From: Thermoplasmata archaeon
Lineage (GTDB): Archaea; Thermoplasmatota; E2; JACPAO01; JAHFTW01
DNA length: 64,000 nucleotides
Direction: 5' to 3'
Assembly: GCA_034667725.1 (NCBI GenBank)
Contig: JAXDQS010000005.1
Span: 32,001-96,000, forward strand
Numbering within the stretch: position 1 is the stretch's first letter; every line of letters begins with the position of its first letter. Made by a program: the position numbers and the translations under genes. Below the pieces are notes generated by a model, which was not told the DNA's origin, searched no databases, and worked only from the letters and a program-made list of their open reading frames with translations. Positions 2,506 to 57,284 of the stretch are shown here, piece after piece.

Positions 2506-2587
2506 GCACAGGTAGTCAAGTGGCCAACGACGGGAGGTTCAGGGCCTCCTTCTTCGTGATTCGCAGGTTCGAATCCTGTCCTGTGCA
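2506..2587 (+). tRNA. tRNA-Leu(CAG)
   Basis: Acceptor stem GCACAGG/CCTGTGC, anticodon arm GGAGG-TTCAGGG-CCTCC, long variable arm, T-loop GTTCGAATC, discriminator A; CCA not encoded. Confidence 0.93.
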
Positions 2588-2987
2588 CTAAGCAAGGGTC
2601 GCTGCGCGAAGCGCCAGCGCCCGGTCCTGGAGTGTTGGACAGGATTCGCCGAGCGATGCGAAGCGAGCGAGGAATCCCTGCGCGACCGAAGGGAGCGCAG
2701 GGTCGAATCCTGTCCTGTGCACTCCAACAGCCAGCGATGCGCAGCGAGCGGTGCTGCGGAGTCGCACAGGGCAGGATTCGCCGAGCGACGCGAAGCGAGC
2801 GAGGAATCCCTGCGCGACCGAAGGGAGCGCAGGGTCGAATCCTGTCCTGTGCACTAGAACAGACAGACGTGTGCGCGCAGCGCCACACGCTGGTTTCGAA
2901 GGGCTGGGCAGGATTCGCCGAGCGCCGCAGGCGCGAGGAATCCCTGCGCGACCGAAGGGAGCATAGGGTCGAACCCTGTCCTGTGCA
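2588..2987. repeat. Tandem array of three ~133-bp units (variable ~50-bp spacer plus conserved 82-85-bp core ending in a copy of the tRNA-Leu 3' end)
   Basis: Cores at 2637-2721, 2769-2853 and 2906-2987: GGRCAGGATTCG...CCCTGCGCGACCGAAGGGAGCGCAGGGTCGAATCCTGTCCTGTGCA; the third core is the most diverged. Confidence 0.95.
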
Positions 2988-3088
2988 CCTCGCCAACGTG
3001 CGTGGCCGCCCGCCAAGAGCAGGACCCACGGTTGAGGGCGGCGCCCCCCTTGGAGGAGACATTTTGTGCAGGACCCTGTGGCGCATCC

Positions 3089-12475: not shown

Positions 12476-14599
12476 ATGGGTTTCAGCGCATGGAAGGTGG
12501 CCAAGGTTTGCGCCGGCCTGTTGACCGTTGTTTCCCTTACGGGGTCCTTGTTACCGGTCCCGCCGCCCGCTCCAAGCCTTCCGCTGGATTCATGCGCAGG
12601 GGCCGCCGCCGAGGGCGCGACATTCACAAGAATCTCCACGGCCGACCTGCTGGCCGATGCCGCCGCTGGCGTTGCGCGGCTGACGCACCGCGGCAAGACC
12701 TACGAAGTCCCCGTCGAGCAAGTCTCCGTCCACGGGAACTTCACGGATGGCGTGGAAACCAAGACCTGGAACGAAGTCATCCCGATCCACTACGTTGGCG
12801 AGAACAAGACGACCGAGGTCCGCGCCTTGCTGGTCGGAACCGAGGACAACCTGGTCGTCATGTTCAGCAGTTGGCACGGCATGGTCCTCGCGACCGCCGC
12901 GTCCAGCATCGCCTCGACTTCCGCCGGCGACTGCTACCTCATCGGTGGCGCCGCCCGGGCGCCGCACACGGGAGGCGAGCTTCCAGGCGCCCATGTTCCA
13001 ACGATGACCCCCTTGGAGATTCCGTCCACTGCCCCCGTGCAGTGCATTCCCTTGGCAGACCGCGACGAGGTTTGCGTCCCATCCTGTGCGGGCGGCGTGC
13101 GCCAAGTGGAAAGCACCGTGGTGTTCTGCGGCGACGAGGTCGAGCCCTGCCCAGGCGGCATCAGCCTGAGCACCAACGGCGGCGCCTTGGTGTGCGGCCG
13201 GCCGGTCCAACCATGCCGCCGGGACCCGTGCGTCCCCATGCCCGAATGCCTTGAAGGAAACCCACAGGAGGACGAGCCGGAAATCTGCGGCTACCCCATC
13301 CCAGAATGCGACCTGGACGCGAGCCCGGGGACTCCTTGCGGCCTGCACCCCTGCCAGGGCAGCATCTGCGACAACCCCTGCGTAGAGGCCCTTGGCAGCA
13401 TCGTCGAGAACGGCCAACTGGCGTTCATCAGCAGCGAAGGCGAGGACGACGCGCCGGTCCTGCTTGACGAGTGCGTAGGAGGTTGCCCGCCCGCATCCCC
13501 GGAGTGCTGCTCTGCAACCGACCGCGCCTTGGGCAACTGCTGCGGCGACGCCAGCGACGACTGTTGCGACGGCGAGCTGGCGCCCATCCTCTCGGAGCTT
13601 CGGGACCTGGGCCTCCCCGGCATGTGCGAAGGCTGCGAAGGGCCGCTCGTGAGCGTCCGAGCCCTTGACGATGCGTGCCAGACGGGCGACCCATGCGGTT
13701 CAGGGTGCGACCTGTTCCTCCACACGTATGGCGACTCCAGGTTCTGCACCACGTACCACGATGACTTCTACTGGGCCTTCATGATGGGCGTCGGGACGGC
13801 CATCACGCAAGACGTATGGGACGCCACCGGGTTGAACACGCGGTTCTACCAGAACGGCGACTGCGGGACATGGAACCCCACCACGCACACTTCCACCACT
13901 CCGTGGCTGAACTCCACAACTTGTCCCACGGTGAACGACGCGGCAATCGACTTCGAAGACACAATCATGAACGATACTACCTCGACATACTACAATGACG
14001 AGCGGAACCACCTGTTCTTCCTCTACATGGCCCCCACGGCGCCCAACTTCTGCGGCGGCGGTTCGTTCTGCCCCGGCAACAAAGGCCACGCCGACATGCG
14101 CCCCCTAGGCGACCGCGGCTACGGCACCACCGATCCCGACCTCAGCGACTACGACCTGCACAACCGCCAAGCCGTGGACCTGACCTTCGTCCTGGCCCAC
14201 GAACTCGGCCACAACCTCTGGGGCACACACGACGGCTGCACACCCGGAATCAACCCACGCAACGAGGACAAACCCGAGTTCGAGCCGCCAGTGCCCCAGG
14301 CCGACCGGTTCGCAGGCGCTGACGGCTGCACCGAACTCTCAAGCAGCCCGGCCGTCATGTTCAGCGAGGCTTGCTATGACATCATGGGCAGCCGCCCGAC
14401 GGGTCCTGAATGGGACGACCGCGACACCATCCCCCGCTACTCGGACGGCTATCACAACGAGAACCCCTCGTTGAGCAACAAATACTACATGCAATGCGAG
14501 ATTGCGTGGAAAATCACTGGCGACGACCGCTACCACACCGCCGACGGATGCGCCCAAATGCATGGAGCCACTACTGCCTTCTCGCCGGCGCTCCCATGA
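12476..14599 (+). CDS. Secreted Cys-rich zinc metalloprotease (metzincin, reprolysin-like)
   Basis: N-terminal signal-like segment, ~40 Cys, AHELGHNLWGTHD zinc motif, downstream Met-turn-like DIMG; true ATG at 12476 inside ORF 10571..14599. Confidence 0.8.
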   Translation: MGFSAWKVAKVCAGLLTVVSLTGSLLPVPPPAPSLPLDSCAGAAAEGATFTRISTADLLADAAAGVARLTHRGKTYEVPVEQVSVHGNFTDGVETKTWNEVIPIHYVGENKTTEVRALLVGTEDNLVVMFSSWHGMVLATAASSIASTSAGDCYLIGGAARAPHTGGELPGAHVPTMTPLEIPSTAPVQCIPLADRDEVCVPSCAGGVRQVESTVVFCGDEVEPCPGGISLSTNGGALVCGRPVQPCRRDPCVPMPECLEGNPQEDEPEICGYPIPECDLDASPGTPCGLHPCQGSICDNPCVEALGSIVENGQLAFISSEGEDDAPVLLDECVGGCPPASPECCSATDRALGNCCGDASDDCCDGELAPILSELRDLGLPGMCEGCEGPLVSVRALDDACQTGDPCGSGCDLFLHTYGDSRFCTTYHDDFYWAFMMGVGTAITQDVWDATGLNTRFYQNGDCGTWNPTTHTSTTPWLNSTTCPTVNDAAIDFEDTIMNDTTSTYYNDERNHLFFLYMAPTAPNFCGGGSFCPGNKGHADMRPLGDRGYGTTDPDLSDYDLHNRQAVDLTFVLAHELGHNLWGTHDGCTPGINPRNEDKPEFEPPVPQADRFAGADGCTELSSSPAVMFSEACYDIMGSRPTGPEWDDRDTIPRYSDGYHNENPSLSNKYYMQCEIAWKITGDDRYHTADGCAQMHGATTAFSPALP

Positions 14600-15051
14600 A
14601 CAAGCTCTTGGTCGCGGCAGTGTTGCTGGCCAGCCTACTGGCGGGTTGCGGCTCCAGCGTCGAGGACCCCACGACGACCACCACCGCCACCATCCGGACA
14701 GGTCCACCGCCAACCGGACCCTGCAAGCACCTGTATCAGCCCTCCACACAAGGTCAGGTGCTGGTCGAGGTTAGTTTGAGCCAGGGGCCGGCGGAGGGGA
14801 TGGATATCAGTGGCCACCTCATCCGCATCGAGGGCTCGGACATGATTCCCGGCGGGGACGCGCAGGTCGCCGGCACCTGCATGCGCGCCGAAATCCCCCA
14901 AGCGGGGCAATATTTTGTCTCCGTCCGCACGCCGGACAACTACACCGGCGGGGAGAACTGCTACTGGCACGGGGGGACGGGTCGCTTCAATTTTGACCAG
15001 CAGGCCTACAAGGAACTGCACGCGACCCTCAATTTCCAGTGCACGCACTAG
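14596..15051 (+). CDS. Lipoprotein, paralogue 1 of 3
   Basis: Lipobox LLAGC, Thr-rich linker, four further conserved Cys; ATGA overlap with the protease stop. Confidence 0.85.
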   Translation: MNKLLVAAVLLASLLAGCGSSVEDPTTTTTATIRTGPPPTGPCKHLYQPSTQGQVLVEVSLSQGPAEGMDISGHLIRIEGSDMIPGGDAQVAGTCMRAEIPQAGQYFVSVRTPDNYTGGENCYWHGGTGRFNFDQQAYKELHATLNFQCTH

Positions 15052-15059
15052 ACGTGACC

Positions 15060-15512
15060 ATGAACAAGTTCTGGGTGACGGCAGTGTTGTTGGCCAGCCT
15101 ACTGGCGGGTTGCGGCGGCAGCGTCGAGGATTCAACGACGACCACCGCGGCGACAGTCCGGACTGGCCCACCCCCTACGGGGCCGTGCAAGCACCTCTAC
15201 CAACCCTCAACGCAGGGTCAGGTCTTGGTTGAAATACGGATGAGCCAAGGGACCACGCAAGGGCTGCAATTCACCAGCCAACTCATCCGTATCGAGGGTT
15301 CTACCCAGCTTGAGGAAGGGGATGCCCAAGTTCTAGGTTCGTGCATACGTGCCATCATCCCTCAGGCGGGGAAATACATGGTCTATGTGCGGACGCCGGA
15401 CAATTACAGCGGTGGGGAGAATTGCTACTGGCACGGAGGCAAAACCTTCGATTTCGCCGAGCAGGTCTATCTCGAACTCCAGGCGGTCATGAACTTCCAA
15501 TGCGCGCACTAG
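15060..15512 (+). CDS. Lipoprotein, paralogue 2 of 3
   Basis: LLAGC, TGPCKHLYQPSTQGQVLVE, VRTPDNY.GGENCYW, NFQCAH shared with neighbours. Confidence 0.85.
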   Translation: MNKFWVTAVLLASLLAGCGGSVEDSTTTTAATVRTGPPPTGPCKHLYQPSTQGQVLVEIRMSQGTTQGLQFTSQLIRIEGSTQLEEGDAQVLGSCIRAIIPQAGKYMVYVRTPDNYSGGENCYWHGGKTFDFAEQVYLELQAVMNFQCAH

Positions 15513-15520
15513 GCGTTGCC

Positions 15521-15979
15521 ATGAACAAACTCTGGGTCACGGCGGTGCTGGCCGTTCTCCTGGCGGGTTGCGGCGGCAGCGTCGAGGATTCAACGACAAC
15601 CACCGCGGCGACCGTCCGGACTGGTCCACCGTCCACTGGCCCCTGCAAGCACCTGTATCAGCCTTCGACGCAAGGCCAGGTCTTGGTCGAGGTCCGCCTG
15701 AGCCGAGAGGCCGAAGACCAACACTTCATCGGCCGGTTGGTGCGCATTGAGAACAACACCCCGATTACCGAGGCTGAGGCCGACGTGCAGGTCGCAGGCT
15801 CCTGCGTGCGGGCTGAAATCCCTCGGGCAGGGAATTACATGGTTTCTGTCCGAACGCCAGACAACTACACTGGCGGGGAAAACTGCTACTGGAGCGGAGC
15901 CACCAGTCGCTTCGATTTTGACGCGCAGGCATACAAAGAGCTACCCGCGACCCTCAATTTCCAATGCGCGCACACCTAG
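15521..15979 (+). CDS. Lipoprotein, paralogue 3 of 3
   Basis: Same conserved blocks as paralogues 1 and 2. Confidence 0.85.
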   Translation: MNKLWVTAVLAVLLAGCGGSVEDSTTTTAATVRTGPPSTGPCKHLYQPSTQGQVLVEVRLSREAEDQHFIGRLVRIENNTPITEAEADVQVAGSCVRAEIPRAGNYMVSVRTPDNYTGGENCYWSGATSRFDFDAQAYKELPATLNFQCAHT

Positions 15980-56205: not shown

Positions 56206-56280
56206 AGCGGGGTGGGGTAGCCAGGAGATCCCGACGGGCTCATAACCCGTAGATCAGTCGTTCAAATCGACTCCCCGCTA
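56206..56280 (+). tRNA. Initiator tRNA-Met(CAT)
   Basis: AGCGGGG/CCCCGCT acceptor with A1-U72, three G-C pairs closing loop CTCATAA, T-loop TTCAAAT. Confidence 0.95.
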
Positions 56281-56673
56281 TTCAGTCTTCGGGCGACTTG
56301 TTCGTGATCGTTGCTGCGCTGGGGCCAGTCGAACGCCCGAACGCGAGCGCTTGGTCGGCGTCTCGTCGCGCAACACCTGGTCCAGTCTTGCGAAGTTCTC
56401 GTCCCATTGGCGCTGGAACTCGGTCAGGTACGCGACTGCCTTCTCGATGGGCTCCCCCCTCAACCTGGCGTACCGCCTTGGCATGGCGCGGCGCCGCACG
56501 ACGATCCCGGCGTCCTCAAGCACCTTCAGGTGCTTCGATACGGCAGGCTGCGAGATTGGAAGGGGATTGGTCAACTCCTGCACCGTCGCCTCCCCTTGCG
56601 CCAACCTGGCCAGGATGAGTCGCCTGGTCGGGTCCGCGAGGGCACGGAACGTCAGGGTGAGAGCATCAGGCAT
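56278..56673 (-). CDS. ArsR/SmtB family transcriptional regulator
   Basis: FRALADPTRRLIL, SQPAVSKHLKVLEDAG. Confidence 0.92.
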   Translation of the reverse strand: MPDALTLTFRALADPTRRLILARLAQGEATVQELTNPLPISQPAVSKHLKVLEDAGIVVRRRAMPRRYARLRGEPIEKAVAYLTEFQRQWDENFARLDQVLRDETPTKRSRSGVRLAPAQQRSRTSRPKTE

Positions 56674-56678
56674 GCGTG

Positions 56679-57161
56679 TCAAGCCATGTTCGACAGGAAG
56701 CTGTCCAAGCGCGCGAAGCCCTCGTCCATGCCGGCCTGCACGTCCATCCCCAGGAGTTCGTCGCGCAGTTGCTTCGTGGCCGTCGTGATGAGGATGGTGA
56801 CCGTTGTGCGGCCGCCCGCCTCGGTGAAGGTGTGGCTGCGGACTTCGGGGGTCGGGTCCGGGTCGCGGCTTTCCATGACAAGGAGGCGGGGTTTCTCGAC
56901 GTCGTGGAACACGCCGCCCGTCATGAAGGTGGAGCCGTTGGGCCCCCAGCCCCAGCGGAACTTGCCATTGGGTCGGACGTCCATCTCGCAGATTGTCATC
57001 GGGTGGGCAGCGAGGCCGTACCACTTGGGGACGAGCTTGGGGTCGGTGAAGGCGCGCCACACAAGGTCGCGTGGGGCCGCGAAGGAGCGCACGAGTTGGA
57101 TGGTGGTGTCGGAAGGCAGGGTGAGGGTGGAGCCGACGGGGGAGACCGTGGGGCGGGCCAT
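56679..57161 (-). CDS. SRPBCC/AHSA1 domain protein
   Basis: RSFAAPRDLVWRAFTDP, CEMDVRPNG, GMDEGFARLD. Confidence 0.92.
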   Translation of the reverse strand: MARPTVSPVGSTLTLPSDTTIQLVRSFAAPRDLVWRAFTDPKLVPKWYGLAAHPMTICEMDVRPNGKFRWGWGPNGSTFMTGGVFHDVEKPRLLVMESRDPDPTPEVRSHTFTEAGGRTTVTILITTATKQLRDELLGMDVQAGMDEGFARLDSFLSNMA

Positions 57162-57184
57162 GCTGGTGGATGGGGCGCTTCAAT

Positions 57185-57202
57185 CATAACCGTTTGGTTA
57201 TG
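57185..57202. promoter_or_regulatory. Palindromic operator, probably for the ArsR regulator
   Basis: CATAACC-N4-GGTTATG, 24 nt upstream of the SRPBCC start. Confidence 0.75.
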
Positions 57203-57270
57203 GTTGGGCGGTTCACGAGGCACGACCGTTTCCGATTTCGGCGCCCATTTTCTAGGCGAGGGGTCCAACA

Positions 57271-57284
57271 CGACTCCCCGCTAT
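57271..57284 (+). repeat. Copy of the tRNA-iMet 3' end (att-like)
   Basis: CGACTCCCCGCTAT identical to 56268-56281. Confidence 0.85.

Follow-up and report, generated by a model that had tools for sequence, protein, structure and literature searches.

The DNA that follows the tRNA-Leu(CAG) gene of an uncultured Thermoplasmata archaeon is probably an array of three non-autonomous mobile mini-cassettes, each of about 133 nt and without genes, belonging to a family whose members follow many tRNA genes and also some essential genes for proteins. The family is widespread, structurally conserved and matched to its targets, and it behaves as mobile DNA. The source is assembly GCA_034667725.1 (2.32 Mb in 26 contigs, 90% complete), called G000 in the genome comparison, with relatives numbered in the same way. 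By the window I mean the whole stretch of 64,000 nucleotides that was analyzed, positions 32001-96000 of contig JAXDQS010000005.1 (C5:32001-96000), with a G+C content of 71%.

The array behind tRNA-Leu(CAG)

The genes for S4, S11, RpoD/Rpo3 and tRNA-Leu stand in the window in archaeal order, followed by the array and then by a gene for a GDT1-family transporter. The long open reading frames that overlap the array match no protein family and are GC-rich noise. The parts of the array are listed below, where X-Y denotes the tRNA 3' end and H1 and H2 the two hairpins of a unit.

2506..2588, + strand: intact tRNA-Leu(CAG) (ARAGORN; Rfam tRNA, 47.8 bits)
2569-2588, + strand: X-Y copy 1, the last 20 nt of tRNA-Leu(CAG), from T-loop position 55 to the base past the discriminator
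2589..2636, + strand: spacer S1, a hairpin with a GCGAAGC mini-hairpin as its cap (DNA fold; spacer identities)
2637..2648, + strand: inverted arm of unit 1, GGACAGGATTCG, which is the reverse complement, without mismatch, of 2570-2581 in the tRNA
2649..2672, + strand: H1 of unit 1, a hairpin of GAGC/GCGA repeats with tandem GA mismatches and a GAA loop
2676..2702, + strand: H2 of unit 1, with the stem CCCTGCGC/GCGCAGGG and a C-GAA-G loop (fold; compensatory stem variants in relatives)
2703..2722, + strand: X-Y copy 2, an exact copy of the tRNA 3' end (repeat positions)
2723..2768, + strand: spacer S2 (fold)
2769..2834, + strand: unit 2, with its arm at 2769-2780 (one G:T relative to the tRNA), H1 at 2781-2804 and H2 at 2808-2834
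2835..2854, + strand: X-Y copy 3, an exact copy of the tRNA 3' end (repeat positions)
2855..2905, + strand: spacer S3, a hairpin with a GCGCAGCGC cap (fold; spacer identities)
2906..2968, + strand: unit 3, with its arm at 2906-2917, a short H1 at 2918-2938 and a decayed H2 at 2942-2968
2969..2988, + strand: X-Y copy 4, the most distal, with a T-to-C change in the T-loop (repeat positions)

The array lies far beyond chance, and all that the sequence-only reading described of it is borne out. Exact copies of TCGAATCCTGTCCTGTGCAC stand at 2569, 2703 and 2835, and a copy with a single mismatch stands at 2969 (none expected in shuffles); the 12-nt inverted arm GGRCAGGATTCG is found at + strand positions 2637, 2769 and 2906 (0.01 expected). 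The repeat periods, 134/132/134, are those that had been read from the sequence alone, and TRF reports the array as a repeat with a period of 132 bp and a score of 480. The cores of the three units are 88-98% identical to one another, as compared to 56-63% for the spacers, which are 46-51 nt long and gene-less; shuffled spacers give 50 +/- 4%. The most diverged parts are the distal core and the last repeat (H2 GCATAGGG; T-loop GAACCC). The sequence-only reading had seen just this, spacers different in sequence and a distal core more decayed than the rest, and it had named as contrary evidence spacers that align as ordinary diverged tandem duplicates, which these do not. Its core of 82-85 bp takes in the regenerated tRNA end. 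The 3' part of S2 lengthens the arm of unit 2 into a 20-nt complement to the entire tRNA 3' end (2761-2780).

A search of Rfam 15, including its self-cleaving ribozymes, passes only the tRNA, all other matches being miRNA-like and at the level of chance. A hammerhead or other ribozyme was rejected for want of an Rfam match and because the junction sequences are unsuitable. A diversity-generating retroelement was also rejected, since the differences among copies are not adenine-specific and there is no reverse transcriptase.

When folded as DNA, units 1 and 2 form an outer stem of 12-17 bp around H1 (GAA loop) and H2 (C-GAA-G loop), with z scores of -4.7 and -5.4, as compared to -1.4 for the decayed unit 3. 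Folded as circles, the three units give z scores of -4.4, -5.3 and -2.7. The Y shape with two hairpins and tandem GA mismatches that had been described for this DNA is therefore confirmed for the first two units, by their DNA fold. The folds are also strand-specific. In the minimum-energy DNA folds of 13 tRNA-linked units of this genome, the tRNA-sense strand carries 13 GNA triloops against 2 TNC, the complementary strand shows the mirror image of this bias, and the sense strand is the better folder in nine units. The G:T pairs of the arms and of H2 are located on the sense strand as well. DNA is known to be stabilized by C(GNA)G triloops, by the GCGAAGC mini-hairpin and by tandem sheared GA pairs. 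Loop bias, G:T placement and loop types stable in DNA together favor a functional form that is the sense strand, single-stranded and more likely DNA than RNA, and so the earlier suggestion of an element that folds as single-stranded DNA gains support from the bias in loop type.

One further repeat in the window may be recorded here. At 14587-15690 there is a tandem repeat with a 464-bp period (2.4 copies, 76% matches) that opens with a signal-peptide-like coding start and looks like tandem paralogous genes of the lipoprotein type.

Cassettes behind other genes and in other genomes

A BLAST search of the assembly with one core found a second array, 3' of tRNA-Leu(TAG) on contig C4. Its arm, GGGGCAGGATTCG, complements the end of that tRNA, CGAATCCTGCCCC; the arm has therefore changed along with the tRNA. 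Its inner core (H1, linker and H2) is identical to that of window unit 3 at 51 of 54 positions, and the short H1 of that unit is identical to the H1 of the C4 cassette. When all 47 tRNA genes of G000 were scanned, ten proved to have their own 3' end copied 80-160 nt downstream: Leu-CAG, Leu-TAG, Asn, Tyr, Pro-GGG, Gln-TTG, Lys-CTT, Arg-CCT, Lys-TTT and Thr-CGT. A stem made by the upstream arm and the regenerated 3' end is present in 11 of the 13 tRNA-linked units that were folded, with clear cases at Pro-GGG, Thr-CGT and Arg-CCT (arms of 18-19 nt at the latter two); the units at Tyr and Lys-TTT have no clear arm.

Three cruder scans served less well. The architecture itself, an arm with an upstream direct copy, is no commoner across the genome than in reversed sequence, because the DNA is GC-rich and of low complexity, and it is not usable as a census; a loose regular expression for H1 is as noisy, and a degenerate H1 pattern run across genome contigs found chance matches in GC-rich bacteria only.

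Several other repeats of G000 resemble the cassettes in part. The tRNA-Gly(TCC) gene (G000:C3:372600-373065, minus strand; inspected by eye) is followed by an array with a period of 107 bp, in which a different type of cassette is present as three units and part of a fourth; in the relative G005 the same tRNA is followed by three Leu-type cores in its place. The tRNA-Met(CAT) gene of the window (56206-57284) is followed by an islet of about 1 kb with small minus-strand open reading frames, closed by a second copy of CGACTCCCCGCTAT. The islet is bounded by 14-bp repeats and has neither an integrase nor the arm and hairpin module; it was considered as a cassette bearing cargo and rejected for lack of that module. 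A second, unrelated family of dispersed repeats, TGTGGAATCTGTG / GTCTGTGGGAATCTTC with the inverted partner TTCCACAGAC, is found on contigs C3, C5, C6, C7 and C10. Repeats of the TGTGGAATCTGTG type often form units of about 133 bp in local clusters, for example at C10:124272-124405, C6:36315-36525 and C3:57580-57817.

The same layout occurs at the ends of protein genes. After the end of secY (at the start of contig C5 and the end of C8) come a spacer, an antisense arm and hairpins, and then the gene end is repeated, a case that I inspected by eye in G000, and the gene for a KH-domain protein (C7) ends in the layout of the tRNA cassettes, further gene-end copy included. The spare secY end differs from the resident end by eight changes and the third KH copy by five, all of them synonymous, and the spare ends must therefore once have worked as gene ends. 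In other species the secY cassettes begin their repeat at different codons, each with its own matching arm. H1 of the secY cassette of G004 is nearly identical to H1 of window units 1 and 2; since H1 is common to secY and tRNA-Leu cassettes, one core family serves unrelated targets.

Simpler hairpins are found in two relatives (L031 and L039 in G019, L032 and L038 in G010). These REP-like sequences have variable outer arms around GGGTTCC-GAGCGAGCG...CGAGCGAGG-AATCCC, carry the H1 motif of the cassettes and lie directly 3' of stop codons, without a duplicated gene end.

To follow the family beyond G000, a covariance model (R1) was built from 12 Leu-type cores. It finds full-length cores in 14 of 32 genomes, representing 5 of the 11 genera of the taxonomic family. 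The matches lie directly 3' of tRNA-Phe, Val, Arg(TCT), Arg(GCG), Arg(CCG), Gly(TCC), Lys(CTT), Ala(CGC), Leu(GAG) and a Leu(CAA)-like gene, and at each of these the outer arms reproduce the sequence of the local tRNA and its complement. Pro tRNAs are also among the hosts of full-length cores, and altogether one core family stands 3' of at least 12 tRNA species. In an alignment of 35 matches, 93% of the cells are paired, as compared to 73.6% in shuffles, and both sides have changed in 19 of 21 pairs, including 11 of 12 arm pairs, figures to be read with the understanding that the alignment was fitted to R1 and that units of one array are related rather than independent. Sliding the partner by one to three columns lowers the pairing to 26-51%. 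The covariation of arms with their tRNA that the sequence-only reading had proposed to look for is thus present, as are related cores behind many other tRNAs, their arms swapped to match. An arm may nonetheless resemble that of another tRNA, as at tRNA-Leu(TAG) of G004 and tRNA-Arg(TCT) of G010.

The number of units is not constant. At the rpoD-tRNA-Leu locus of congeneric species it ranges from none (G001, G019) through one (G010) and two (G007) to three (G000 and G012), which disposes of the thought that copy number might be invariant; G005, G004 and G006 have one or two units in slightly different contexts. The two units of G004 are identical to each other. Judged by their first 4-6 nt, types of spacer are common to several species: S1 is shared with G004, S2 with G010 and S3 with G005. 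Scans of metagenomes gave no close strain, only a single match within a bacterial kinase gene.

Two of these relatives (L025 of G006, at 1165-1444, and L040 of G004) have the 5' part of a pseudo tRNA-Leu (positions 1-53) between rpoD and tRNA-Leu(CAG). It has a hairpin-rich insert of 55-75 nt in its anticodon loop and is cut off precisely at the T-loop; about 50 nt of other sequence and then an intact tRNA-Leu with cassettes follow. The arrangement suggests that larger replacement events, too, have their left junction at the T-loop.

Polarity, enzymes and rival explanations

In the window, the copies of the tRNA end upstream and downstream of an arm are identical, and the arm can therefore pair with either. 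In eight cases, however, the two flanking copies differ and allow a choice, and in all of them the better fit of the arm is to the upstream copy, in none to the downstream one; three further cases are ties. The informative cases are, in G000, Pro-GGG, window unit 3 and the KH gene, and elsewhere unit 1 of tRNA-Leu and tRNA-Val in G012 and secY in G001, G005 and G004. The co-adapted block is therefore the 3' end X-Y, the spacer S and the arm, followed by H1 and H2, and the natural unit is best read in this permuted order. For the same reason I would draw it as a circle, which would take the shape of a dumbbell, with the X:arm stem in the middle, joining the part made up of Y and S to the H1/H2 fork at the opposite end. 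The Y shape and the long hairpin across the spacer are one structure viewed from two sides.

Such a unit suggests a tentative mechanism, a natural DNA-guided insertion in which a single-stranded dumbbell circle of about 130 nt would find its site by means of an antisense arm of 12-20 nt and might be inserted by a nuclease or ligase from outside the known families, possibly one supplied by the host. A circle of this form that locates its site by the arm and renews the gene end is the model with the best support. The arm would pair with the sense strand of the target gene where that strand is exposed, aligning the site 5' of X (T-loop position 54/55 in a tRNA) with the cassette's H2|X junction, where one strand would be exchanged. 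The incoming X-Y would complete the tRNA, and the former 3' end would be displaced downstream to decay there. Each insertion would renew the target and so make stacking possible, and the cores may be homogenized by local duplication or gene conversion. A fold-back (snap-back) synthesis of the arm was rejected, since it would also invert the spacer and Y, which is not seen.

Exchange at H2|X with the old end pushed downstream would make copy 4, at 2969..2988, the oldest displaced tRNA end. This polarity agrees with the decay of the distal unit and repeat, with the distal tRNA ends of relatives, most of which are nearly compatible with the resident 5' acceptor strand, and with secY of G005, whose distal end shows the codons usual in the genus, the rare codons AGA and GGA being found, together with a matching arm, at the resident end. 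One case speaks against it. At tRNA-Leu(CAG) of G012 (L206 / L029, C22) the acceptor strand of the distal copies, CTCGTGC, does not pair with the resident 5' GCCCAGG and is one base from that of tRNA-Leu(CAA) of the same genome, which suggests that here the proposed order would need whole-gene replacement or entry from another tRNA-Leu locus. The polarized insertion that had been proposed from the sequence alone is plausible, given the decayed distal unit and the arm that fits the upstream copy.

The same proposal had invoked a trans-acting recombinase and had named a tyrosine recombinase or an HUH/RAYT gene as what to look for. No tyrosine recombinase is found near the array, and no HUH/RAYT gene in 32 related genomes. 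PF01797 (Y1 HUH, the family of IS200 TnpA and RAYT) has no match in any of the 32 family genomes, as compared to 6 of 14 positive controls. TnpB (PF07282), the IS110 DEDD recombinase (PF01548), reverse transcriptase (PF00078) and Cas1 (PF01867) are absent from the 90% complete G000, and PF02407 (Viral_Rep) and PF01446 (Rep_1) have no match in the genus, although the control genomes were silent for these two as well. The only match to PF00589 in G000 is weak and integrase-like (27 bits), on another contig. This tyrosine-integrase-like open reading frame lies at G000:C10:27530-28234 (L044). Its 3' end overlaps that of tRNA-Pro(TGG), which is encoded on the opposite strand, and about 250 bp beyond it is an apparently intron-containing tRNA; this region is probably an integrated element. 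Open reading frames on the small contigs encode a DDE transposase, an HNH nuclease and housekeeping functions. The gene for this HNH nuclease (G000:C8:4030-4551, minus strand; 175 aa) is single-copy and is a conserved neighbor of secY, present in 25 of the 32 genomes; it was considered as the cassette enzyme and dismissed, since its distribution does not track that of the cassettes.

It may be asked whether the units act instead as RNA, the array being co-transcribed with tRNA-Leu as its 3' trailer and the modules having spread by ordinary duplication and selection. The units might then serve as substrates or decoys in processing by RNase Z or the CCA enzyme, protect the 3' end by their structure, or supply a spare 3' half when the tRNA is repaired or spliced. 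There is indeed no T-run between the tRNA and the units, the first TTTT 3' of the tRNA lying near 3060; the fold is strand-specific, contains pairs of the G:U type and covaries strongly; and the upstream tRNA-Leu part of G006 and G004, ending exactly at the T-loop, is reminiscent of split tRNAs. I nevertheless think this unlikely, for no Rfam family matches, C(GNA)G triloops and GCGAAGC mini-hairpins are typical of stable hairpins of DNA and not RNA, and an arm antisense to the T-arm of the same tRNA would impede the folding of the tRNA rather than aid it, while differences of 0-3 copies between close species, distal decay and duplicated protein-gene ends with synonymous-only differences are the behavior of mobile DNA. 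At about the same low level, if anything a shade lower, I would place an explanation without any dedicated mobility, in which the cassettes pass between genomes only by homologous recombination through conserved flanks and multiply within arrays by unequal crossing-over, their hairpins being selected as REP-like stabilizers or terminators. Highly conserved host genes provide the flanking homology, cores are homogenized within a genome, spacer types are common to several species, and G019 and G010 do have simple H1-type hairpins after stop codons with no copy of a target. It leaves unexplained how a single core could come to stand behind protein genes and a dozen unrelated tRNAs, each time with an arm that fits the locus, and why the arm tracks the upstream copy (eight to none).

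The units could also be scars of tyrosine integrases, the deleted attL-attR remnants of a plasmid or provirus that entered at the tRNA T-loop. The block of identity does run from the T-loop to the 3' end, a regenerated gene with a displaced fragment is the signature of tRNA islands (PMC4383910), an integrase-like frame abuts tRNA-Pro(TGG) in G000, and the tRNA-Met of the window has its integrase-less islet between 14-bp repeats. One homologous inner core of 55 nt behind at least 12 tRNAs and protein genes would, however, require as many integrase specificities, a target-matched inverted arm is foreign to att sites, the genome offers one weak integrase match, and the arm and hairpin module is missing from the tRNA-Met islet, so that scars of this kind are quite improbable. 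Least credible of all is a purely local tandem duplication of the tRNA trailer with fast divergence of the spacers and no relation to other loci. The 132-bp tandem array reported by TRF and the two identical units of G004, which fit a recent duplication, are what it would predict, but it is at odds with cores 98% identical beside spacers 56% identical within one array, and homologous cores at many other loci and genomes contradict it. Non-autonomous mobile cassettes are the reading I retain.

Comparison with known mobile systems

The cassettes point to an undescribed mobile element. A full-text search of the literature found no description of them, which does not prove that none exists. If the reading is right, then a gene-less element renews the end of an essential gene and carries its own address as an antisense arm, a combination present in no family compared here. 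It would account for the spare gene ends and tRNA 3' fragments that are stacked in these uncultured archaea and make the cassettes fast-evolving markers of strain history. It would also imply a new enzyme activity on folded single-stranded DNA in archaea and give a natural precedent for sequence-programmable insertion, akin to IS608 with a long guide but without TnpA.

Integron attC sites and the forked hairpin of CTXphi attP(+) that is used by XerCD are recombination sites made by folding a single strand. As with the cassettes, the folded strand rebuilds a duplex chromosomal site, and arrays build up through regeneration of the site. The duplex rebuilt by a cassette is, in contrast, the local gene and differs at every locus; a sequence-specific recombinase therefore cannot explain it. 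The cassettes also lack a dif-like site and the conserved R''/R' boxes of attC (RYYYAAC/GTTRRRY), and neither IntI nor Xer is encoded near them. The likeness to an integron that had been drawn from the sequence does not hold, there being no attC-type signature: the arms are tRNA sequence, the spacers are gene-less, and the array has rpoD and the GDT1-family transporter gene as neighbors and no intI-attI. The inverted terminal repeat of AAV, acted on by Rep68/78, is alike in shape only, a T/Y hairpin of single-stranded DNA with two small palindromes in a long stem, although it has GAGC-type tetranucleotide repeats in common with the H1 of cassettes. The Cas1 casposase of casposons, elements that also have TIRs and a TSD of 14-15 bp, and the DEDD recombinase of the IS110 elements with their bridge RNA are features without a counterpart in G000, from which PF01867 and PF01548 are absent.

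REP/BIME sequences (REPINs), mobilized in trans by RAYT (TnpA-REP), are likewise short, gene-less, GC-rich hairpin repeats that follow gene ends, often in arrays (PMC8266576, PMC3479197). The cassettes differ in having neither a RAYT nor a GTAG-type head, in outer arms that copy the neighboring gene rather than a fixed consensus, and in duplicating the 3' end of the target. The islands that tyrosine integrases place in tRNA genes (Islander; PMC4383910) are inserted between T-loop and 3' end, regenerate the tRNA, leave the displaced fragment as a direct repeat and may be stacked, all as in the cassettes. In contrast to islands, the cassettes are 133 bp long, contain no gene or integrase, have many targets for one core family and possess an antisense arm and a forked hairpin. 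REP/RAYT, attC, the Xer phages, tRNA islands, casposons and IS110 each match one or two traits of the cassettes and fail at least one defining feature that was tested.

The nearest concept is IS608, which recognizes its target through base pairs formed by a guide that adjoins a hairpin and which has been engineered for sites of 12 or 17 nt (PMC5934647; PMC3201880 and PMC5027513 also treat the IS200/IS605 family to which it belongs, its gene-less PATE derivatives and engineered IS608). The loop bias of the cassettes is compatible with the strand-specific folded DNA of IS200/IS605 elements and PATEs, and a circular single-stranded intermediate is common to both in so far as it is proposed for the cassettes; choice of the target by pairing with a sequence carried beside a hairpin is another likeness on the same proposal, and the engineered pairing of 12-17 nt is close to the 12-20 nt of natural cassette arms. 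Differences are equally clear. The cassettes have no Y1 HUH transposase in any of the 32 genomes and no TnpB in G000. IS608 makes no duplication and inserts 3' of a target of 4-5 nt, whereas a cassette brings with it a 20-70-nt copy of the gene end and so comes to be flanked by long direct repeats, from 20 nt (tRNA) to about 66 nt (secY). Finally, a single cassette arm appears to serve both junction and target, and the targets of the cassettes lie inside essential genes.
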